Of a stretch of DNA of 23,343 nucleotides, positions 4,541 through 23,343 are shown piece by piece. The notes under the pieces are model-generated. The model saw only the letters and a program-made list of their open reading frames with translations. It had not been told where the DNA came from and did no database searches. Position 1 is the first letter of the stretch, and the number at the start of each line of letters is the position of its first letter. This DNA is from a virus (lineage: Duplodnaviria; Heunggongvirae; Uroviricota; Caudoviricetes). Made by a program: the position numbers and the translations under genes. The stretch is taken from positions 1-23,343 of the IMG/VR virus record IMGVR_UViG_2541047945_000008, one strand, 5' to 3'.

Positions 4541-4598
4541 AAAAAGGGCGGCAGAGCAGTCACGGAGTAAAACTGATACCGCCAAATGTCACCAGAAA
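4541..4598 (-). ncRNA. dicF: DicF small regulatory RNA
   Basis: The reverse complement reads tttctggtgacatttggcggtatcagttttactccgtgactgctctgccgcccttttt, matching my recollection of DicF (the ftsZ-targeting sRNA processed from the dicB operon transcript), ending in a T-run. Confidence 0.7.
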
Positions 4599-4933: not shown

Positions 4934-5212
4934 ATGGATAAAAAGCAAATTGAGGCCCTGCAATCTATTATTGAAGAACAAGATGAAGCTATCAGGATTC
5001 TTTCATATCGCACTGATATGATACTAAATATGCTTTCTGCATTAACGGCTGCGCTTGGTGGTACAAAAACAAACGTATACCGCGAAGTTGTTATTCAACA
5101 GATAGATAAATTTGAAAAAACCATACCAGGTATTAATGCTCATCTTGCAGAACAAGAGAAAGACCATGCTCTTATGGCAATTTCTTCAGTAGCTCTCCCG
5201 AAAGTTGAGTAG
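4934..5212 (+). CDS. Hypothetical coiled-coil protein (92 aa), opposite in orientation to the surrounding operon
   Basis: ATG at 4934 with SD AGGAGGG 5-6 nt upstream. AT-rich. The track ORF begins at an upstream GTG; trimmed. No recognisable domain. Confidence 0.5.
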   Translation: MDKKQIEALQSIIEEQDEAIRILSYRTDMILNMLSALTAALGGTKTNVYREVVIQQIDKFEKTIPGINAHLAEQEKDHALMAISSVALPKVE

Positions 5213-5573
5213 TTTTAATTGTTGTTTTGAAATAATCACTGCTTTCACATTTGAGTGATTTCATGGCAATCCAAATGCGGGCCTCTGTGCCTGCATTTGG
5301 TTCCAGTTGCTGTAGACGTTTTGCGTCTTCCAAAAGTAAGGCGATAATGTGTTTCAGCTTCTCATCATTTGCTTGATTCTTGTTTTCAGGCGAATTCTGT
5401 CCGCCGAATAGGCGCTTCTCTTCATACAGACCTATAAAGGCACGACGCACGTTACCGGATATAGTATCGATGGTTTCCTTTTCTACAGTACTCAGGTCAA
5501 GAGTCGCCAGTTGAGAGCGAATCACATTCGCTGCCATTTCCTGGAATGGCATTGGTAAATCTTTAAATTCCAT
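5172..5573 (-). CDS. Hypothetical protein (133 aa) inserted between ydfC and dicF
   Basis: ORF with SD GAGG 8 nt upstream. No family recognised. As far as I recall, not part of the K-12 Qin dicB operon. Confidence 0.55.
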   Translation of the reverse strand: MEFKDLPMPFQEMAANVIRSQLATLDLSTVEKETIDTISGNVRRAFIGLYEEKRLFGGQNSPENKNQANDEKLKHIIALLLEDAKRLQQLEPNAGTEARIWIAMKSLKCESSDYFKTTIKTTQLSGELLKKLP

Positions 5574-5595
5574 TATTAGCCTCGTTGGTTAGCTA

Positions 5596-5814
5596 TTAAC
5601 GTGGGTATGTAACCATTCTGGCAATGCTTAATGCCGCTGCTTTTTCCAGCCTGGTGATATCCTGCTCCAGAGCGGACAGATTTTCAGCCTGCTTAGTCCT
5701 GGCTTCATTGGCCCATTTCAGATCCTGCACTGCATTAATTTTCTGGCGCATCCACTCATAAAGTTCATCATCGGTATAGTCTGGCGCGATGATGACGGGT
5801 TCTCGTTTCTGCAT
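5596..5814 (-). CDS. ydfC: YdfC-like small protein (72 aa)
   Basis: Size and position (third small gene of the ydfABC-dicF-dicB operon); SD GAGGA 6 nt upstream. Confidence 0.55.
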   Translation of the reverse strand: MQKREPVIIAPDYTDDELYEWMRQKINAVQDLKWANEARTKQAENLSALEQDITRLEKAAALSIARMVTYPR

Positions 5815-10021: not shown

Positions 10022-10447
10022 ATGGCAAAAGTATTTACACAAGAAGAGCGGGAAAAAATTAAAGGGCAGGTTGTTGAACTTGTACGTCTGAGCGGTCGCG
10101 AGACGTTGCGGCAACTGGAAGCCAAGACAGGTGCGACAAGATATCTGATGAGTGTTCTCGCCAGAGAGCTGGTTGCCAGTGGCGATGTATACAACTCTGG
10201 TTACGGGTTATTCCCGTCTGAACAGGCGCGTAAGGACTGGCAAAATGCTCGCAAAAAACTCTCAAGGGCAAAGGTGAAGAAACCTGCAGTGGTTGATCCG
10301 GACCTTATCTGGTCGTTACCAGACGGCGAAATACGCCGCTACGACAGGCGCCTGAATATAATCTGTCGCGAGTGCCGGAAGAGCGAAGCTATGCAGCGTG
10401 TACTGGCATTTTATCAAGGAAATGTTAGGTATTTTAGACGTTACTAG
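10022..10447 (+). CDS. Hypothetical phage protein (141 aa)
   Basis: ATG at 10022 with SD GGAGG (track ORF starts at TTG 10007). No family recognised. Confidence 0.5.
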   Translation: MAKVFTQEEREKIKGQVVELVRLSGRETLRQLEAKTGATRYLMSVLARELVASGDVYNSGYGLFPSEQARKDWQNARKKLSRAKVKKPAVVDPDLIWSLPDGEIRRYDRRLNIICRECRKSEAMQRVLAFYQGNVRYFRRY

Positions 10448-10600
10448 ATTAAAGAGCATTAGTTCAGATGTGAATTGACATTTTCATGGCGCAGGGTAGA
10501 GCCAGCGTGGTTGTCCGCTTTGCGTCAAAACCAGATATTACCAGATTTAGACATATATTCCCGATAGCCCTGCTCTGATGCTACACTCTGTGCTATTTTC

Positions 10601-11287
10601 ATGACCCCAATAAAAATATTTATGACTATTGCTGATTTCAAACGGCCTAAATTGGAGCTCCCAAACGGGGCAAACAAACTACTACTGCACTCTTGCTGTG
10701 CTCCATGTTCCGGTGAAGTGATGGAGGCGCTTCAGGCCTCGGGAATCGACTACACCATCTTTTTCTACAACCCGAACATTCATCCTCAGAAAGAGTATTT
10801 AATTCGTAAGGATGAAAATATTCGCTTTGCTGAACAACACGGCGTGCCGTTTATCGATGCTGATTACGACACCGACAACTGGTTTGAACGTGCCAAAGGA
10901 ATGGAATGGGAGCCTGAGAGGGGGATCCGTTGTACCATGTGTTTTGACATGCGTTTTGAGCGGACAGCGTTGTACGCTGCTGAAAATGGTTTCAGTGTGA
11001 TCAGCAGTTCACTGGGCATTTCACGCTGGAAAAATATGCAGCAGGTTAACGAGTGTGGGCGGCGAGCTGTTGCGCATTATCCGGGTATGGTGTACTGGGA
11101 TTATAACTGGCGCAAGCAGGGCGGCTCGTCCCGTATGATTGAAATCAGCAAGCGCGAAAAATTCTATCAGCAGGAATATTGTGGCTGTGTGTATTCTCTG
11201 CGCGATACCAATCTACACCGCAAATCTCAGGGACGCCCTCTTATCAAAATTGGCCAACTCCACTACGGAAAAGAAGAGAAGGAGTGA
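10601..11287 (+). CDS. queH: DUF208/QueH-like protein (putative B12-independent epoxyqueuosine reductase), 228 aa
   Basis: N-terminal [11 protein letters not shown] motif with additional conserved Cys (CTMC, CGC), recalled as the DUF208/QueH signature. No obvious SD; alternative ATG at 10622. Confidence 0.6.
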
Positions 11288-11524
11288 TTTTATGGATCAC
11301 CTTTCTGATTGATTTCATATTGGCGAGGTGACGTGAGTTAAGTAGAATGGCTGCGGGTGCTTGAGGCTATCTGTCTCAGGCATGAACACTGAAAGGCAGA
11401 TAGAGAAAAGCCCCAGTTAACATTTCGCGTCCTGCAAGACGCTTAACATTAATCTGAGGCCCAATCTATGTCTCACAAATGTAGGTTAGCCTCTTACGTG
11501 CCGAAAGGCAAGGGGAAGCAGGCT

Positions 11525-11680
11525 ATGAAGCAGCAAAAGGCGATGTTAATCGCCCTGATCGTCATCTGTTTAACCGTCATTGTGACGGCACTGGTAACGA
11601 GGAAAGACCTCTGCGAGGTACGAATCCGAACCGGCCAGACGGAGGTCGCTGTCTTCACAGCTTACGAACCTGAGGAGTAA
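11525..11680 (+). CDS. hokD: Hok/Gef-family membrane toxin (51 aa), HokD/RelF-like
   Basis: MKQQKAMLIALIVICLTVIVTALVTRKDLCEVRIRTGQTEVAVFTAYEPEE matches my recollection of HokD/RelF. A structured leader lies upstream and a terminator downstream. Confidence 0.8.
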   Translation: MKQQKAMLIALIVICLTVIVTALVTRKDLCEVRIRTGQTEVAVFTAYEPEE

Positions 11681-11749
11681 GAGACCCGGCGGGGGAGTAA
11701 TCTCCCGCCACCTCTGATGTGCCAGGCATCCTCAACGCACCCGCACTTA

Positions 11750-11769
11750 ACCCGCTTCGGCGGGTTTTT
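11750..11769 (+). terminator. Rho-independent terminator after hok
   Basis: cccgc-ttcg-gcggg followed by TTTTT. Confidence 0.6.
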
Positions 11770-11845
11770 GCATTAGTCTGGTTGACAAAAATAGAAAAAT
11801 GCGAAAATATGTGGTTTACGAATTCTAAAAAAAGCGAAACTTGAA

Positions 11846-12496
11846 ATGAATGAAAATCAGTTAGCTCCTTGTTGGGAATTTCAACCTTATCTTGCTGAAA
11901 ACTATGTTCGCCACTTGTTGGCGGAGATCGCTAACGTACTTGAGCAGCTGTACTATCATAAGCACGCATTAGACAGCAACTGGTCTGAAGGTGTAAGGGC
12001 TTATGATTGGGTCAGAAATCATCTTATTCAAAATGAAGATGCAATTCCTGGCCTTGAGATGATTTCCAAGGGGTTGGACTATGTAGTTGCTTTAAATAAA
12101 GTTCCGCTACAATTTACCAAAGATTGCATTAATAACCCCAAAAAGAAACATCGTCTGCGTCGAAATAAAGTAGAGTATGAGCAGCTCTCATTGTTTGGTG
12201 ATGTTGAGGCTGAGCAAGATATTACATGGCGAGTCATAGCTGAGCCTTTTTTATCCGAAGAGGGCGATGGTGAATTAGAGTCCACACTGCCTCGTTGGGA
12301 GGTAGCTCTTGTTGGATTTAATACTTATGGTGCTCAGATTAGTATAGTTTCTCATCAATCTACAGCATCGATGCCGCTTATGCCTCTTGATTATAACACA
12401 CTCCCTGACGAAGCGGAGATTAATAAGGTGCCTCTTCGTCGGCGTACGAAGGATAAAGATTTGGATGTGAGCAGTGATGGAACATCAGGTGAATAA
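11846..12496 (+). CDS. Hypothetical protein (216 aa), candidate toxin/effector partnered with an HTH-peptidase
   Basis: AT-rich ORF overlapping the downstream HTH-XRE/ImmA-like gene by 20 nt. Possible promoter TTGACA at about 11781 with an AT-rich -10. No domain recognised. Confidence 0.6.
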   Translation: MNENQLAPCWEFQPYLAENYVRHLLAEIANVLEQLYYHKHALDSNWSEGVRAYDWVRNHLIQNEDAIPGLEMISKGLDYVVALNKVPLQFTKDCINNPKKKHRLRRNKVEYEQLSLFGDVEAEQDITWRVIAEPFLSEEGDGELESTLPRWEVALVGFNTYGAQISIVSHQSTASMPLMPLDYNTLPDEAEINKVPLRRRTKDKDLDVSSDGTSGE

Positions 12497-13580
12497 CTTC
12501 ACTGAGTATCGGGGTGATAAGCTCAAACTAGCGAGAATGGCTGTTGGGCTTTCTTGTGAAGAGTTAGCCGAAAAAATTGGCAAGACAAAGCAATTCGTTA
12601 GCAAACTGGAGAAGGGGTGCAGGCCATCGGAGCAATGTCTTGAGTTAATATCTTCAGCGCTTATGATTAAGTCCAGTTTTCTTTTTACTGAACGAAAATA
12701 CGCTCTGGAAAGTGATGTCTGCCATTTTCGGAGTAAGAAGTCCAGGACTCAAACGCTGACTAATAGTGTATTGGCCAGGGCTGAGATTCTTAATATTATA
12801 ATTTCTGCTGTTGAAGGTGAAATCGAATTTCCTGACGTTAACATACCGGAGCACCCAGGGGCTGAATTACTTACTCCGAATGATATTGAGCGAGTGGCAG
12901 AAGATTGTCGCCGTGCCTGGAATTTAGGTCTTGGCCCTATATCATCAATGGTTAAATTGGCGGAGAGTTTAGGGGTAATCGTTGCGCATGTTACGGGAGT
13001 CGATGATCGTGTTGATGCTTTTACTGTTCACAATAACAGGCCTGTTATCATCAGGAACAATGTTAAAAAAAGCATATGTAGATTTCGCTCTGATTTAGGT
13101 CATGAATTAGGGCATTTAGTAATGCATGAGGGCATAACGACAGGTGATAAACTTACGGAATCACAAGCCGATCACTTTTCGAGCGCCTTATTAGTTCCCA
13201 GGTTATCTTTCATTAAAGAATTTCCACGAATACGAGGTAAGCAATTCGACTGGAATGCTCTGGTTGAATTTAAACTTAGATGGAAAATCAGCCTTAAAAT
13301 GTGTATTTATCGAGCCAGCGCATTAGGCTTATTGACCCAGGAACAGGCAAGAACTGGCTATATGCATCTTAATTCCAGAGGGTATACGAGAGTTGAACCT
13401 GGTGATGAACTTTTGCGCCCTGAAGAACCCGGCATGCTGGCCGAGGCGATTGAAATGCTGGATGATGCAACCTGGCTAAGAATTCTTATGAAAACTGGCT
13501 TGAGCCAAGATTTAATTCGTGAGTTGTTCTCCATCAACAGACCTATTACAAATCCAAGAAATATTTTCCAGATTGTTTGA
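12477..13580 (+). CDS. HTH-XRE DNA-binding domain fused to an ImmA/IrrE-type (M78/COG2856) zinc metallopeptidase, 367 aa
   Basis: N-terminal HTH (LKLARMAVGLSCEELAEKIGKTKQFVSKLEKG) and HExxH zinc-binding motif (HELGHLVMHE). Track ORF starts at GTG 12474; ATG at 12477. Confidence 0.8.
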   Translation: MEHQVNNFTEYRGDKLKLARMAVGLSCEELAEKIGKTKQFVSKLEKGCRPSEQCLELISSALMIKSSFLFTERKYALESDVCHFRSKKSRTQTLTNSVLARAEILNIIISAVEGEIEFPDVNIPEHPGAELLTPNDIERVAEDCRRAWNLGLGPISSMVKLAESLGVIVAHVTGVDDRVDAFTVHNNRPVIIRNNVKKSICRFRSDLGHELGHLVMHEGITTGDKLTESQADHFSSALLVPRLSFIKEFPRIRGKQFDWNALVEFKLRWKISLKMCIYRASALGLLTQEQARTGYMHLNSRGYTRVEPGDELLRPEEPGMLAEAIEMLDDATWLRILMKTGLSQDLIRELFSINRPITNPRNIFQIV

Positions 13581-16495: not shown

Positions 16496-17260
16496 ATGGA
16501 AGAACAGCACGGTAATTACTTTATAAAACGAATTCAGTTGATTGGAAGAGGGGCATTTGGCTTTGTTGAACACGTTAAGGTTTACAACCTCAATAAAGGT
16601 GAATGCGGGGATTATGCTAGAAAGGTTTTAGCACCCGAAAAACCAGAGCTTTTGGCGCAAATAGAGCAGTTTAGAAGGCGTTTTAAAAGGGAGGTTGTGT
16701 ATCAATCACATTGCGTACATAGCAATATTGTTCCTATTTATTTGTGCGATTTGTTTGTTGAGAATCCATGGTTCATTATGGATAAAGCAGAATGTGATCT
16801 TGAGCACGAAATAACGAACAACCTTCTTACAACAGATCAAAAAATTTCAATAGTGAAAATGGTATTAGATGGTGTAGCTTACATCCATGCCAAAGGCTAT
16901 TTACACAGAGATATAAAACCCTTTAATGTTTTGCGATTTAGCGACGGAACATACAAGGTGTCTGATTTTGGTCTGGTAAAAGATACGAATCCCGAAGGGG
17001 ATACCACTAAATTGACCGAGATCGGTACCCGTATGGGAAGTACAAGATATATGGCTCCCGAGATTTTATATAATGCAGAGTATTCAGTTAAGACTGATGT
17101 TTATGCTGTGGGACGGTTAATTGAAGACTTAAATTTAGATGATAAAAAAATAAAGCCTATCATAGCTAAGTGCACAAGGATGGATAAAGATGATAGATAT
17201 CAGACAATAGATGATGTGGCGTTTGATTTTGCGCATTCTTTTTTAAGGAGTGAGTCATGA
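16496..17260 (+). CDS. Hanks-type (eukaryotic-like) Ser/Thr protein kinase, kinase domain only (254 aa)
   Basis: Canonical subdomains: GRGAFGFV (Gly loop), YARKVL (catalytic Lys), HRDIKPFN, DFG, MAPE, DVYAVGR. ATG at 16496 (track ORF starts at TTG 16421). AT-rich. Confidence 0.85.
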   Translation: MEEQHGNYFIKRIQLIGRGAFGFVEHVKVYNLNKGECGDYARKVLAPEKPELLAQIEQFRRRFKREVVYQSHCVHSNIVPIYLCDLFVENPWFIMDKAECDLEHEITNNLLTTDQKISIVKMVLDGVAYIHAKGYLHRDIKPFNVLRFSDGTYKVSDFGLVKDTNPEGDTTKLTEIGTRMGSTRYMAPEILYNAEYSVKTDVYAVGRLIEDLNLDDKKIKPIIAKCTRMDKDDRYQTIDDVAFDFAHSFLRSES

Positions 17261-18000
17261 TTCAGCTGATAGCGACTTCATCATTCTCGTATCCAAAAGA
17301 ACCAGGTAGGGTCAACGAAGATTCATTGCTTCCTCCAAAAATTGTAGGAGACGGCATCTTATTTGCCGTAGCTGATGGTGTAGGTTCATACTCTGGTGCC
17401 AGTTATGCTTCATCCATGGCAATCGCTGAACTTTCAGCATTGACAAGTTTATCTTTTGATGCAGTTCCGAATGTATTTGCTGAAGTTAAGCGAAAAGTTA
17501 TGTCGTTAGCTGAAGTTAATGATGAGTTCGATAAAGCTGCTACTACACTTACCTTTTGTTATGTTTGTGATAGCGGAATTATTATTGGTCATATTGGTGA
17601 TTGTCGCTTGTATTGCATTGGAGAAAAGAAAGCATATCAATTGACGAAGGACGATACCAGACATCAGATGTTAATTGATCAGAATATTTTTAAACCCAGA
17701 GATTTGAAGAATAAACCGGGAAAAAATATCTTAACGACTGCCATAGCCTCAAATGTTGATATGGAATACGACTGTGATTTTATCCCGTGGAAAGATTTGC
17801 CTGGTATTAACGGGTTGTATCATCTGTGTATCATGTCTGATGGAGTTCATAACGTTTGGGAAAAACGCCCCAGATTTACATCAAATACTATGAGTAATAG
17901 TCAGAAGTTTTCTAATGGTATTTTGCGTCGTATAGAGAGAGCCGGACCTGATGATGACTTTTCTTTAGTAAGTATAATGGTGCGTGTGACGTCAGATTAG
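17257..18000 (+). CDS. PP2C-family (PPM) Ser/Thr protein phosphatase (247 aa)
   Basis: PPM motifs: NEDS, FAVADGVGS, GDCRLY, MSDGV, GPDDD. Start overlaps the kinase stop (ATGA), so the pair is translationally coupled. Confidence 0.85.
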   Translation: MIQLIATSSFSYPKEPGRVNEDSLLPPKIVGDGILFAVADGVGSYSGASYASSMAIAELSALTSLSFDAVPNVFAEVKRKVMSLAEVNDEFDKAATTLTFCYVCDSGIIIGHIGDCRLYCIGEKKAYQLTKDDTRHQMLIDQNIFKPRDLKNKPGKNILTTAIASNVDMEYDCDFIPWKDLPGINGLYHLCIMSDGVHNVWEKRPRFTSNTMSNSQKFSNGILRRIERAGPDDDFSLVSIMVRVTSD

Positions 18001-18486: not shown

Positions 18487-18562
18487 GGCCCTTTAGCTCA
18501 GTGGTGAGAGCGAGCGACTCATAATCGCCAGGTCGCTGGTTCAAATCCAGCAAGGGCCACCA
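18487..18562 (+). tRNA. tRNA with CAU anticodon (Ile2-lysidine or Met type)
   Basis: Hand-folded cloverleaf: acceptor GGCCCTT/AAGGGCC, D-arm AGCTCAGTGGTGAGAGC, anticodon loop CTCATAA, T-arm GGTTCAAATCC, 3' CCA. Confidence 0.8.
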
Positions 18563-18782: not shown

Positions 18783-18996
18783 TCACAATTCAGGCGGTTG
18801 ACTGTTGTCTGGTTTGCGGGGAGTTTGTTAAAAGAAACTGGCATGGTGAATCCCCCTGTGCGGAGGGGCAATCAGCGAGTAGGTATATGGGATAATCGCG
18901 GATTCAGGTGCTGGTACTGAATTCACCGGGAGGCACCCGGCACCATGCAATGGCACATAGCGCCACTCTCCAGCCCCTCTCCGGAGGGGCTTTTCT
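18783..18996 (+). repeat. Repeat unit A: structured element ending in a terminator (candidate sRNA gene)
   Basis: Shares blocks with unit B: tcacaattcag, ttgac, tttgttaaaa, catggtgaatcccc, a cccc/gggg hairpin, caccgggaggcacccggcaccatg and terminator gcccctc-tccg-gaggggc plus T-run. Confidence 0.5.
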
Positions 18997-19250
18997 GTGC
19001 CGGATACATCACAGTTTCTGGAACCTTAGGTACTACAGTATCAGTCAGGGTGCTATATTTTCAGATGTGATGAAAGCCTGTCAGCAGGCAGGGCGTATCG
19101 GAAATGACCCAGTAGAGAAAACGTTGACTCAGATACCGGTGCTGAGTTACCGGGAAACCGGCATCACATGACCGCTATCCTTCCAGGCCCATCCGCTCCG
19201 GTGGGCCTTTTTACTGCAGAAAACAGGTTCCCCGTTAAATGCTATGTTGC

Positions 19251-19483
19251 TCACAATTCAGTAAGTTGACAGTTGCCTGTCAGACTGGGCATTTGTTAAA
19301 AAAATTTCGCATGGTGAATCCCCCTGAGCGGAGGGGCGACTGGTGACGGTATAATCTCTGATTATCAAAACGAGAATGACGCGGGTTTAGTGGCACCGGG
19401 CTGAACTCACCGGGAGGCACCCGGCACCATGTGCATGATGATACAGATACGCGGCTTTAGCCCCTCTCCGGAGGGGCTTTCTT
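19251..19483 (+). repeat. Repeat unit B: second copy of the structured element
   Basis: Same conserved blocks and the same terminator hairpin (agcccctctccggaggggctttctt) as unit A; internal segments diverge. Confidence 0.5.
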
Positions 19484-19711
19484 ATGGACAAAAAAAGCCC
19501 GCGCTGGGAGACGCGGGCGGCAAGGAATAAACAATAAAACGTGAAGTAATATTTCAGCTGGCGAATAATACCCCATAGTAATCACTCTGCGCAACTGCGC
19601 GGTCTTTTTCGAATTGCGGGCTGTAGTCTCCCTTCTGCCATTGTCCTGTAACTTCCGGACTTCAGCCTGCTCCTTATCTGACTCACAACATTATCCCGCC
19701 CGGGAGGATTC

Positions 19712-19906: not shown

Positions 19907-20233
19907 ATGACTAAAAATACTCGTTTTTCCCCTGAAGTCCGTCAACGGGCAGTCCGTATGGTTCTGGAAAGTCAGGGCGAATATGACTCACAATGGGCGA
20001 CAATTTGTTCCATTGCTCCAAAGATTGGCTGTACGCCGGAGACTCTGCGTGTCTGGGTTCGCCAGCATGAGCGGGATACCGGGGGCGGTGATGGAGGGCT
20101 CACCACCGCTGAACGTCAGCGTCTGAAAGAGCTGGAGCGTGAAAATCGTGAACTGCGCCGCAGTAACGATATCCTTCGCCAGGCTTCCGCTTATTTTGCG
20201 AAGGCGGAGTTCGACCGCCTCTGGAAAAAATGA
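19907..20233 (+). CDS. IS629 transposase OrfA (HTH, 108 aa)
   Basis: [57 protein letters not shown]... with a leucine-zipper-like C-terminus. Confidence 0.85.
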
Positions 20234-21120
20234 TGCCACTGCTGGATAAGCTGCGTGAGCAGTACGGGGTCGGACCGCTATGCAGCGAACTGCATATTGC
20301 CCCGTCAACGTATTACCACTGTCAGCAACAGCGACATCATCCGGATAAACGCAGTGCCCGTGCGCAGCGCGATGACTGGCTGAAGAAAGAGATACAGCGC
20401 GTATACGATGAAAATCACAAGGTATACGGTGTGCGTAAAGTCTGGCGTCAGTTGTTACGGGAAGGTATCAGAGTGGCCAGATGCACTGTGGCACGTCTCA
20501 TGGCGGTTATGGGACTTGCCGGTGTTCTCCGGGGTAAAAAGGTCCGTACGACCATCAGCCGGAAAGCCGTTGCCGCAGGCGACCGCGTAAACCGTCAGTT
20601 CGTGGCAGAACGACCTGACCAGCTGTGGGTGGCTGATTTTACTTACGTCAGCACATGGCAGGGCTTCGTCTATGTGGCGTTCATCATTGATGTGTTTGCC
20701 GGATACATTGTGGGGTGGCGGGTCTCATCGTCCATGGAGACGACATTCGTGCTGGATGCACTGGAGCAGGCGTTATGGGCCCGTCGACCGTCCGGCACGG
20801 TCCATCACAGTGATAAAGGTTCTCAGTATGTATCGCTGGCCTACACACAGCGGCTTAAGGAAGCCGGATTACTGGCATCAACAGGAAGTACAGGCGACTC
20901 GTATGACAACGCGATGGCGGAGAGCATCAATGGTCTTTACAAAGCGGAGGTAATACACCGTAAGAGCTGGAAAAACCGTGCAGAAGTGGAACTGGCCACA
21001 CTCACGTGGGTGGACTGGTATAACAATCGACGATTGCTGGAAAGGCTGGGCCATACTCCTCCGGCAGAAGCAGAAAAAGCTTATTATGCTTCCATCGGAA
21101 ACGATGATCTGGCAGCCTGA
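20230..21120 (+). CDS. IS629 transposase OrfB (DDE integrase-like catalytic domain)
   Basis: 296-aa ORF overlapping OrfA (ATGA); rve-type DDE domain (WVADFTYV ... HHSDKGSQY ... DNAMAES). Confidence 0.85.
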
Positions 21121-21425: not shown

Positions 21426-22009
21426 TGGCATTCAGAATGAGTGAACAAGCACGGACCATAAAAATTTATAATCTGCTGGCCGGAACTAATGAATTTATTG
21501 GTGAAGGTGACGCATATATTCCGCCTCATACAGGTCTGCCAGCAAACAGTACCGATATTGCACCACCAGATATTCCTGCTGGCTTTGTGGCTGTTTTCAA
21601 CAGTGATGAGGCATCGTGGCATCTCGTTGAAGACCATCGGGGGAAAACGGTTTATGACGTAGCGTCAGGGGACGAGTTATTTATTTCTGAACTCGGTCCG
21701 TTACCGGAAAATGTTACCTGGTTATCGCCGGAAGGGGAGTTTCAGAAGTGGAACGGCACAGCCTGGGTGAAGGATACGGAAGCAGAAAAACTGTTCCGGA
21801 TCCGGGAGGCGGAAGAAACAAAAAACAAACTGATGCAGGTAGCCAGTGAGCATATTGCGCCGCTTCAGGATGCTGCAGATCTGGAAATTGCAACGGAGGA
21901 AGAAACCTCATTGCTGGAAGCCTGGAAAAAGTATCGGGTGTTGCTGAACCGTGTTGATACATCAACTGCACCTGATATTGAGTGGCCTACGAACCCTGTC
22001 AGGGAGTAA
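21425..22009 (+). CDS. tfa: Tail fibre assembly protein (Tfa), 194 aa
   Basis: Start overlaps the tail-fibre stop (TAATG). Conserved Tfa C-terminus ([32 protein letters not shown]). Confidence 0.8.
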
Positions 22010-22063: not shown

Positions 22064-22720
22064 CTATTTTTTCCCTGAAGCGGAAAACATTACTACAGTA
22101 CCTTGAACCTTGGTTTTAACATTCTCGAAATGCTCTGAGAGTATATGTGTTAAGCCTTCTTCGGAATCTTTTGTGTTTGAAAAGATGCCTTTCTGATTGT
22201 AAATGCGCATCAGTTTTTGACCGAAGCTATTGTGCACAACTCCATCGCCAAGAATTGTGGCTCCGTATAGAGTTCCATCGTCAGTTAAGGCCTGCGCCGC
22301 ATTGCGTATTACACAGCTTTTTGTAGATATATTTCCAGGCAGGCAGTGAAGAAGGTAAAACATGGAAATGGAATCAAATTGACCATGTAACGCCGCGGGA
22401 TAAGGTTCAAAAACATCATGGCTAATTTTATGTTTAATTTTTGATTCCCCAGCCCTTGTAGATGCCGCGTTCAGGCTAGCTTCGTTCAAATCCATTAAAG
22501 ATATCAGACTACTCTCAGGTACGTGAGTAAGGTAAAACCCAGTTCCAACACCAATATCCAGATGGTTGTTACCTACATGTTCCAGAAAGTGTGGAAGAAG
22601 GTGTTCCTTTGTAGGACATCCCCATGCAAGCCGATTTGATACTCCCAAAACCCACCAGTCATAAAGCTTTAGGGTAAGTGGTGTGTAAATTTTAGCCCCA
22701 TCATCTGTGTTTTTTTTCAT
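22064..22720 (-). CDS. Class I SAM-dependent methyltransferase (approx 218 aa), low-GC cargo gene
   Basis: Motif I LDIGVGTGFY. Convergent with tfa. SD GGTGA 5 nt before the ATG at 22720; the track ORF extends to 22732. Confidence 0.7.
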   Translation of the reverse strand: MKKNTDDGAKIYTPLTLKLYDWWVLGVSNRLAWGCPTKEHLLPHFLEHVGNNHLDIGVGTGFYLTHVPESSLISLMDLNEASLNAASTRAGESKIKHKISHDVFEPYPAALHGQFDSISMFYLLHCLPGNISTKSCVIRNAAQALTDDGTLYGATILGDGVVHNSFGQKLMRIYNQKGIFSNTKDSEEGLTHILSEHFENVKTKVQGTVVMFSASGKK

Positions 22721-22788
22721 TGATTTCACCATGTTATAGTTTTATTTGTGAATTAAATCAATTATGGCGATGAATTACAAGGGGTTAA

Positions 22789-23172: not shown

Positions 23173-23343
23173 ATGGTCCGTCTGCCCCCTGTGGTGATGT
23201 CAGCAAAATCAGCCACTGCGCGAACCACAATAGCCCGGGAAGATGCTGAAGATCACCAGGTAAAGCTGTCAGCGCAGAAACTGGAAGAACTGCTCGCATC
23301 AATGGTTAAGGATGAGGTTGATCGCAATGATGGGATTTATTGA
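23173..23343 (+). CDS. Hypothetical small protein (56 aa) ending at the window edge
   Basis: In-frame ATG at 23173 with GGAGG 10 nt upstream; the track ORF extends to an upstream ATG lacking an SD. No family recognised. Confidence 0.3.
   Translation: MVRLPPVVMSAKSATARTTIAREDAEDHQVKLSAQKLEELLASMVKDEVDRNDGIY

Follow-up and report, generated by a model that had tools for sequence, protein, structure and literature searches.

A queH gene of chromosomal type carried as cargo by a lambdoid prophage of Escherichia coli

Introduction

What is a gene for an epoxyqueuosine reductase doing in a prophage of Escherichia coli, whose own genome already encodes one? The last step in the synthesis of queuosine (Q) in this organism depends on cobalamin, and K-12 strains with a single-gene knock-out of yjeS (queG) accumulate epoxyqueuosine, oQ (PMC4646009). 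In some bacteria, QueG has been replaced by the non-orthologous QueH (PMC5372724). QueH is iron-dependent, and Staphylococcus aureus has both QueG and QueH, with different expression profiles (PMC13443448). The two proteins share their reaction and their tRNA substrates (PMC5372724, PMC4646009), and here both occur in the same cells. They are not homologous, however, and QueG needs cobalamin together with two [4Fe-4S] clusters.

The question is raised by a stretch of viral DNA 23,343 nucleotides long, called here, in its entirety, the window. A sequence-only reading had proposed that the window carries a gene for QueH (DUF208) as prophage cargo, in a host species whose usual enzyme is QueG. 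That proposal now stands, backed by the Pfam match, the predicted fold, the cysteines, an identity of 88-92% to chromosomal proteins, the setting in an ompW prophage, and the presence of queG in 5426 of 5426 E. coli genomes. The present analysis establishes for this queH its family, intactness, selection, distribution, origin and context.

Calling the protein a QueH is, of course, not new. The family has a published structure and published genetics, and the RefSeq name is already correct. What the searchable sources lack is the vehicle: queH travels as prophage cargo, and it has gone unrecognized in phage resources (PHROGs and the record of phage HannyBb). A 2019 survey of queuosine-pathway genes found no homologs of QueA, QueG or QueH in the viruses that it analyzed (PMC6884629). 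Likewise, the searchable literature on QueH, DUF208 or epoxyqueuosine reductase in combination with phage or prophage yielded no paper that describes a prophage-borne QueH.

The gene and its coordinates

The features that the argument needs are these.

10506 to 11289, plus strand: the cassette that carries queH as cargo, the gene preceded by about 116 nt of upstream DNA, delimited by homology borders against phages
10579 to 10587, plus strand: TGCTACACT, a candidate extended -10 element with TG at 10579-10580 and the hexamer TACACT at 10582-10587, proposed from cross-species conservation
10601 to 11287, plus strand: the queH open reading frame counted from an in-frame upstream ATG, 228 aa, as listed in the sequence-only reading
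10622 to 11287, plus strand: the queH coding sequence, 221 aa plus stop, by Pfam, PDB, AF2 and the RefSeq start

Two in-frame ATG codons thus compete as the start. The one at 10622 is kept in all of the aligned homologs, chromosomal as well as prophage, and is the RefSeq start too. The one at 10601 shows no such conservation, and a mere 6 nt or so separate it from the predicted transcription start. The alignments point to 10622, not 10601, as the place where queH begins. The gene had been read as 10601-11287; its open reading frame, strand and end are retained here, while its start moves to 10622.

A full-length QueH

The 10601-11287 reading frame matches the Pfam profile PF02677 (QueH) over profile positions 1-174 of 175, with an E-value of 1.1e-65 and 221.5 bits, where the curated Pfam cut-off is 23.5 bits. 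A search with the DUF208/QueH model was the check that the sequence-only reading had itself suggested, and the protein passes it. Among the protein sequences of the PDB, phmmer matches the window's QueH to Thermotoga maritima QueH (7LC5, E-value 8e-22) and otherwise only to two point mutants of that protein, C9S and D13N, these matches lying near 1e-21. The structure of the D13N mutant is 9DCO. A scan of NCBIfam matched no model, so membership in the family rests on Pfam, the PDB and the fold.

The residues agree. In the 228-aa numbering, the motif HSCCAPCS occupies residues 30-37, and the other characteristic cysteines sit in IRCTMCF, NECG and EYCGCVY. In the 221-aa numbering, C25, C26, C104, C107, C187 and C189 align to C9, C10, C87, C90, C169 and C171 of the T. 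maritima protein. These six cysteines, which form the [4Fe-4S]-plus-iron metal site, are conserved in 201-202 of 202 aligned QueH sequences, a set that reaches to distant proteobacteria, and in which 112 of the 221 positions are at least 98% conserved. One further position is less settled. Li et al., in 2021, reportedly found Asp13 of the T. maritima enzyme to be an iron ligand. Its counterpart here depends on the aligner, being Cys29 with HMMER and Glu32 with MAFFT; both residues are invariant in the clade of the window's QueH.

An AF2 model built with 29 homologs as input has a mean pLDDT of 77 and a pTM of 0.79. Its top five fold matches in the PDB are all T. maritima QueH, a fold of the adenine-nucleotide alpha-hydrolase type (E-values of 5e-11 to 9e-10), with TM scores, normalized to the crystal structure, of 0.76-0.83 (0.80 for the best match, 7LC5/7LC7). 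The next fold is TtuA, at an E-value of 9e-5.

Thus, the gene in the window encodes a bona fide, full-length QueH (PF02677). RefSeq names exactly this protein "epoxyqueuosine reductase QueH" (WP_000150294.1, MULTISPECIES [Enterobacteriaceae]). Compared with T. maritima QueH (7LC5/7LC7/9DEU), it has the same family and fold, an identity of about 30%, and all six of the metal-site cysteines. It differs in being about 30 residues longer, through a short extension at the N terminus and a basic tail at the C terminus, in having Cys or Glu (depending on alignment) where the T. maritima protein has Asp13, and in being carried by a phage rather than by a chromosome.

The prophage setting

The whole window is 100% identical to DNA of E. 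coli LC-1302-2020 (NZ_CP091756.1), and the RefSeq annotation of that region describes a lambdoid prophage inserted in ompW. The prophage opens with an integrase, an excisionase, a RecE-like exonuclease and dicB (with the DicF RNA). A cI/Cro-like pair, YdaS and YdaT follow, then the O-like and P replication proteins, DUF1627 and DUF977. QueH comes next, and after it hokD/sok, a hypothetical protein and an HTH-peptidase, then DUF968, RusA and the phage protein Q, a Ser/Thr kinase with a PP2C phosphatase, and three tRNAs (anticodons CAU, UCG and UCU). At the end stand an IS3 element, tail-fiber remnants and an ompW fragment. The annotation agrees with the earlier placement of the gene between the replication module and the hok/HTH-peptidase island. 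Genes for lysis and morphogenesis are absent, so this copy of the prophage is defective. The early-right operon and queH share a strand. Nearby genes of conflict are hok/sok, the Rosmer pair RmrT/RmrA, and a kinase of the PD-T4-6/Stk2-like kind. The three prophage tRNAs are not Q substrates, as none has a GUN anticodon.

The place of queH in this order is itself a variable one. In other E. coli prophages, the gene also follows DUF977 and precedes hokD or other genes of the nin region, with a truncated methyltransferase or a small reverse ORF lying between DUF977 and queH in some of them. In the Qin prophage of K-12, the slot upstream of hokD is filled by relBE; in phage mEp460_ev081, it is filled by an unrelated, reverse-oriented gene of 449 aa. 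The adjacent hok/sok DNA is present in about 4500 genomes, queH in only 995. Here, the queH insert is a dispensable one, and the position that it takes between conserved phage modules varies. Other cargo of the same slot and of its surroundings (relBE in K-12 Qin, Rosmer, kinases) shares this position between the replication genes and hok/rem/DUF968/Q. That cargo, however, is of the toxin-antitoxin or defense kind, whereas queH encodes a tRNA-modification enzyme of the housekeeping type.

The borders of the insert can be drawn. Homology to phage HannyBb starts at window position 10506, and homology to the queH-less phages Tritos, Evi and mEp460 resumes at 11290, directly past the stop codon. 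The movable unit therefore comprises about 116 nt of upstream DNA and the gene. This cassette, 10506-11289, is what moves between different lambdoid prophages.

Distribution, and the enzymes already present

A query of 728 bp, the gene with 62 nt of upstream DNA, found queH in 995 of 5426 complete E. coli genomes (about 18%). The copy is near full length in 985 of the 995 carriers and is almost always single and chromosomal, and every copy among the matches listed is annotated "epoxyqueuosine reductase QueH." Carriers include O104:H4 and some O157:H7 strains, and E. coli B REL606, E. coli C and ATCC 8739 have an allele that is 93-94% identical. K-12, we take it, lacks the gene. The exact protein occurs on at least 1000 contigs. 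Beyond E. coli, Escherichia albertii has an identical queH with the same phage neighbors, and queH in lambdoid prophages is also found in Shigella.

Phage collections hold less of it. Among 50,697 phage records, a single bona fide isolate carries queH, Escherichia phage HannyBb (45 kb), whose protein is 96.8% identical in amino acids and is annotated "hypothetical protein." The remaining matches in that collection come from metagenomic fragments that carry no annotation, or from very large records of chromosomal appearance. In IMG/VR, 189 contigs encode a relative of the protein, and the best 80 of these 189 are all 100% identical. The PHROGs family phrog_3217 is this QueH; it is labeled "unknown function," and its profile begins after the CCAPC motif.

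Every complete genome examined has queG, as the sequence-only reading had wished to see checked: a K-12 queG query finds the gene in all 5426 complete E. coli genomes, with an identity of at least 95%. At the same level of identity, queA-tgt is present in 5425 of the 5426. Consequently, the oQ-tRNA substrate is made everywhere, and queH is in every case a second reductase and never a replacement. QueG belongs to the core genome (5426/5426), and queH to the accessory genome (995/5426). About 18% of complete E. coli genomes thus have a predicted back-up for QueG.

Origin from a chromosomal gene, and selection since

The closest non-phage relatives are chromosomal. The window's protein is 92% identical to QueH of Scandinavium, 91% to that of Kluyvera, 88-90% to those of Enterobacter species, 79-87% to those of Erwinia, Serratia, Photorhabdus, Providencia and Dickeya, and 74-81% to those of alpha- and beta-proteobacteria. 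The chromosomal gene order in Erwinia is purL-queH-glrK; on Enterobacter-like contigs, queH adjoins a LysR regulator and acetyltransferases. The phage neighbors of the window's gene were seen at none of 79 queH loci outside Escherichia, and among the closest copies compared, only E. albertii shares the phage genes around queH. The idea that the closest chromosomal copies share either phage neighbors or the purL/glrK neighbors of Erwinia was considered and rejected; contexts vary by genus.

Chromosomal queH genes of the Enterobacterales (Enterobacter, Kluyvera and Scandinavium, as well as Erwinia) have the length and the start of the window's gene, and an extended -10 element about 42 nt upstream. 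They differ in setting: they lie among ordinary genes, whereas the queH of the window lies in the early-right region of a lambdoid prophage. On these comparisons, the window's QueH is no divergent phage version of the protein.

Selection was estimated with alleles from different prophages: those of the window, E. coli B, an O7:H15 strain, an STEC strain and HannyBb. Between E. coli prophage alleles, dS is 0.27-0.45 and dN is 0.013-0.024, giving dN/dS of 0.04-0.06. Between prophage queH and the genes of Scandinavium and Kluyvera, dN/dS is 0.02-0.04. A ratio so low, at such synonymous divergence, implies that purifying selection on queH has been strong during its residence in phages. It is also intact in a prophage that has lost its lysis and morphogenesis genes, and a gene retained under selection in a dead prophage argues for a benefit to the lysogen.

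A candidate promoter that came with the gene

The upstream DNA offers a clue to transcription in the lysogen. That of prophage and chromosomal queH genes cannot be aligned, apart from a single block some 42 nt ahead of the ATG, with the sequence (T)GCTACA(A/C)T. The block is common to the window, three other E. coli prophage alleles, HannyBb, and the chromosomal genes of Scandinavium, Kluyvera, Enterobacter (3 species) and Symbiopectobacterium, and its distance to the ATG is always about 38-44 nt. In the window it has the form TGCTACACT, which reads as an extended -10 (TGn followed by TAcAcT) and would place the transcription start near 10594-10596. The pattern TGnTAnnnT is found upstream of queH in 22 of 79 regions of 70 nt each, against 2.9% of control windows; either that pattern or the core GCTAC is found at -38 to -44 in 8 of the 8 closest relatives. 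For the E. coli allele that diverges most, homology to the window sets in at 10573, just six bases ahead of the element.

The -35 of this candidate promoter is weak. A generic sigma-70 scan gave no canonical -35/-10 promoter before queH, with site numbers equal to the shuffled expectation, so the promoter is proposed from cross-species conservation only. The element is best called a candidate extended -10 promoter, one that may be active. The evidence that queH arrived with its native promoter, and that it can be expressed in a repressed prophage, is good if indirect.

A terminator scan found no terminator-like site between DUF977 and queH, nor any between the queH stop (11287) and hok/sok; the first lies at 11749-11766, after hok. 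Since no terminator follows the gene, queH is not a textbook moron of promoter, gene and terminator. Rfam, run over the whole window at gathering scores, showed no riboswitch upstream of queH, nor an RNA element of any other kind; run over 10300-11900 with E-values up to 1, it returned only sok and two sub-threshold chance matches.

What queH may do for the lysogen

The explanation that accounts best for these observations, and that we regard as likely, is that a captured queH, self-promoted and carried as single-gene cargo, converts oQ to Q on host tRNAs independently of cobalamin. The gene would have been captured from a chromosome of the Enterobacteriaceae along with its own short promoter, and would now travel as single-gene cargo (a "moron") between the replication genes and the hok/sok of lambdoid phages. 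Its own extended -10 promoter would drive its transcription in the lysogen. Induction would add read-through from the early-right operon, as is suggested by the orientation of queH with that operon and by the lack of an upstream terminator. QueH, as an iron-sulfur enzyme, would reduce oQ34 to Q34 on tRNA-Asp, tRNA-Asn, tRNA-His and tRNA-Tyr without cobalamin, acting on host tRNAs made by Tgt and QueA, and in parallel with QueG. That the protein has this activity in E. coli is presumed.

The benefit would be that completion of Q is freed from the supply of corrinoids or from their BtuB-mediated uptake. E. coli is not known to make cobalamin de novo, and QueG needs it; sparing of B12 is therefore the likely form of any benefit, and a plausible one. 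Lysogenic conversion by queH is plausible as well, being supported by the conserved promoter element and by strong purifying selection. The size of any benefit is uncertain, since it would depend on how far oQ-tRNA and Q-tRNA differ in physiology. Gut E. coli may usually obtain enough corrinoid.

A second reading has queH serve the phage instead of the lysogen. Here, expression with the early-right genes after induction would raise Q, and so tune the decoding of NAU and NAC codons in the phage's genes or counter a response of the host. The two readings overlap in part, and are not mutually exclusive. The orientation of queH with a pR-type operon, with no terminator found between DUF977 and the gene, fits this idea, as does its presence in HannyBb, a viable phage. 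In a 2026 preprint, moreover, Shewanella infected by phage is reported to gain Q and lose oQ through induction of queG, so that the step from oQ to Q can matter to an infection. Against it, queH is intact and strongly purified in a prophage that is unable to make particles, and it has kept the promoter element of the chromosomal gene. The NAU fraction of His, Asn, Asp and Tyr codons in the window's genes runs from 0.33 to 0.82 with no clear pattern, and 0 of its 3 tRNAs has a GUN anticodon. Service to the phage is on this evidence unlikely as the main explanation, yet it deserves weight.

The neighborhood invites a third reading, in which QueH has been recruited to phage-host conflict, in defense or counter-defense, for example by modifying anticodons in a way that abolishes or newly creates their recognition by anticodon nucleases. 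The neighbors hok/sok, Rosmer RmrT/RmrA and the PD-T4-6/Stk2-like kinase, together with relBE in the K-12 Qin slot, make up its attraction. QueH itself, however, has no match in PADLOC, and its sequence is undiverged and of the housekeeping type. Colicin E5 enters cells by way of BtuB. It is also the one known nuclease that is aimed at Q-tRNAs, but it cleaves Q-less tRNAs equally (PMC1635277). A direct link to colicin E5 was therefore rejected, the modification not being recognized (PMC1635277). We judge recruitment to conflict improbable.

Could queH simply be a decaying passenger, with no current function, that has spread with its prophage? The prophage is defective, and the gene is redundant with the queG of every E. 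coli. Yet the selection data contradict this reading, with dN/dS near 0.05 over dS of up to 0.45; 985 of 995 carriers have a near-full-length copy, all of the catalytic cysteines are kept, and the 112 of 221 positions that are at least 98% conserved are conserved even with distant proteobacterial QueH. A passenger is very improbable.

The last alternative, a link to DNA modification that the sequence-only reading had also raised, fares worst. In it, QueH would act on 7-deazaguanine in phage DNA, as an anti-restriction modification, and not on tRNA. We know of no DNA modification that bears an epoxy-cyclopentanediol, the group that QueH reduces. Bases derived from preQ0 do occur in the DNA of some phages (PMC6884629), and the clusters responsible (DpdA with FolE/QueD/QueE/QueC; Hutinet et al., 2019, PMC6884629) are likewise phage-borne genes of the queuosine and archaeosine pathways. 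Those clusters act on DNA and end at preQ0-derived bases, whereas the queH of the window encodes a late, tRNA-specific step and stands alone. The link finds no support, and the reading is hardly credible: the element has no DpdA/TGT-like transglycosylase and no FolE, QueD, QueE or QueC, by the RefSeq annotation of the prophage and Pfam scans of its unnamed proteins; its QueH is 88-92% identical to housekeeping chromosomal QueH; and the survey of phage deazaguanine clusters recorded no QueA, QueG or QueH (PMC6884629).

Implications for E. coli and its prophages

The preferred reading, in which captured queH acts on host tRNAs, leads to a bolder one. The prophage queH would be a lysogenic-conversion gene for the state of tRNA modification, and about one-fifth of E. 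coli strains would be able to finish queuosine without vitamin B12. This we advance tentatively, with somewhat less than even confidence. Loss of BtuB is a common route to resistance against phages and colicins. If the bolder reading is true, strains would differ in their balance of oQ and Q when cobalamin is scarce or when the BtuB importer has been lost. It would also be, to our knowledge, the first case of a temperate phage that supplies a cofactor-independent isozyme for the modification of a tRNA anticodon.

If the enzyme is active, completion of queuosine would depend on B12 in some E. coli and be independent of it in others, with the difference residing on a mobile element. Strains B (REL606), C and ATCC 8739 carry queH; hence, deletion of queG in those strains may not give the oQ phenotype of K-12. 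An active QueH would bear on work on tRNA modification and translation in strains other than K-12, and on how limitation of cobalamin, in the gut or at extraintestinal sites, affects translation. Prophage cargo as listed so far consists mostly of toxins and defense genes; this case adds an RNA-modification enzyme of the housekeeping type.

Neighbors of queH within the prophage

Across prophages, the gene whose linkage to queH is most constant is its left neighbor, which encodes a DUF977 protein. To the right lies hokD with its antitoxin RNA, and just 3' of hokD is a "hypothetical plus HTH-peptidase" pair. RefSeq labels the members of this pair only "hypothetical protein" and "helix-turn-helix domain-containing protein." Here, the pair matches the Rosmer anti-phage defense system as RmrT and RmrA, the latter carrying HTH_3 and Peptidase_M78/ImmA-IrrE domains.

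Features flanking queH (window coordinates)
10022-10447, +, DUF977 gene; matches phrog_142 in PHROGs (E 1.5e-46), labeled "Ren-like exclusion protein"
11355-11530, +, sok, the antitoxin RNA at the hokD locus (Rfam)
11846-12496, +, RmrT, Rosmer match (E 4.6e-25)
12474-13580, +, RmrA, Rosmer match (E 6e-105)

Kinase and phosphatase genes, and the defective right end

Further along, the Q antiterminator gene stands directly 5' of a serine/threonine protein kinase gene and a PP2C phosphatase gene that overlaps it. The kinase matches three PADLOC models, PD-T4-6, Stk2, and mad6, with E values from 1e-27 to 6e-40. Both genes are AT-rich, having a GC content of 0.37-0.38 against 0.48 for the window. 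The prophage itself is defective; an IS3-family element, which contains an ALIL frameshift pseudoknot, occupies the place where lysis and head/tail genes are expected. From there to position 23343, and on to the right end of the prophage, marked by a fragment of ompW (26647-26772 in the compared database locus L003), all that is left is a class I SAM methyltransferase gene together with tail-fiber-assembly remnants.

Features from the kinase gene to the right end (window coordinates)
16496-17260, +, Ser/Thr protein kinase
17257-18000, +, PP2C phosphatase
19907-21120, IS3-family element
20188-20304, ALIL frameshift pseudoknot
22064-22732, -, class I SAM methyltransferase, left of the ompW fragment

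Transfer RNAs and small RNAs

The prophage carries three tRNAs. The first is called tRNA-Met (anticodon CAT) by ARAGORN and tRNA-Ile by RefSeq; if the RefSeq call holds, it would be of the lysidine-modified Ile2 type. The remaining two are Arg-UCG and Arg-UCU. None of the three has a GUN anticodon, and therefore none is a substrate for queuosine modification. Rfam places the other RNAs as follows.

RNA features (window coordinates)
4546-4597, -, DicF RNA, adjoining dicB
18487-18562, +, first prophage tRNA
18812-19002, +, STnc100 sRNA family, copy 1, 3' of the tRNAs
19280-19489, +, STnc100 sRNA family, copy 2, 3' of the tRNAs
21768-21966, +, IS009 element RNA

queH in other genomes

In PHROGs, this QueH (window 10622-11284) belongs to phrog_3217, a family labeled "unknown function." The profile of that family has 188 positions and begins at residue 34, past the CCAPC metal-binding motif, as if it were the product of N-terminally truncated gene calls.

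Laboratory strains also carry the gene. Among the matches listed, which do not include BL21, queH alleles are found in a Qin-like prophage in E. coli B (REL606 and ATCC 11303, the latter at 5061-5726 of locus L168), E. coli C, and ATCC 8739. In K-12, by contrast, the same position in Qin holds relBE.

Outside phages, the closest chromosomal copies come from Enterobacter, Scandinavium, and related genomes (database loci L090, L091, L092, L088, L172, and L004). Here, queH has as neighbors, for example, icd, a LysR regulator with acetyltransferases, or a DeoR regulator. Because the chromosomal locus differs from species to species, this pattern suggests that the mobility of queH as a small unit is not confined to phages.
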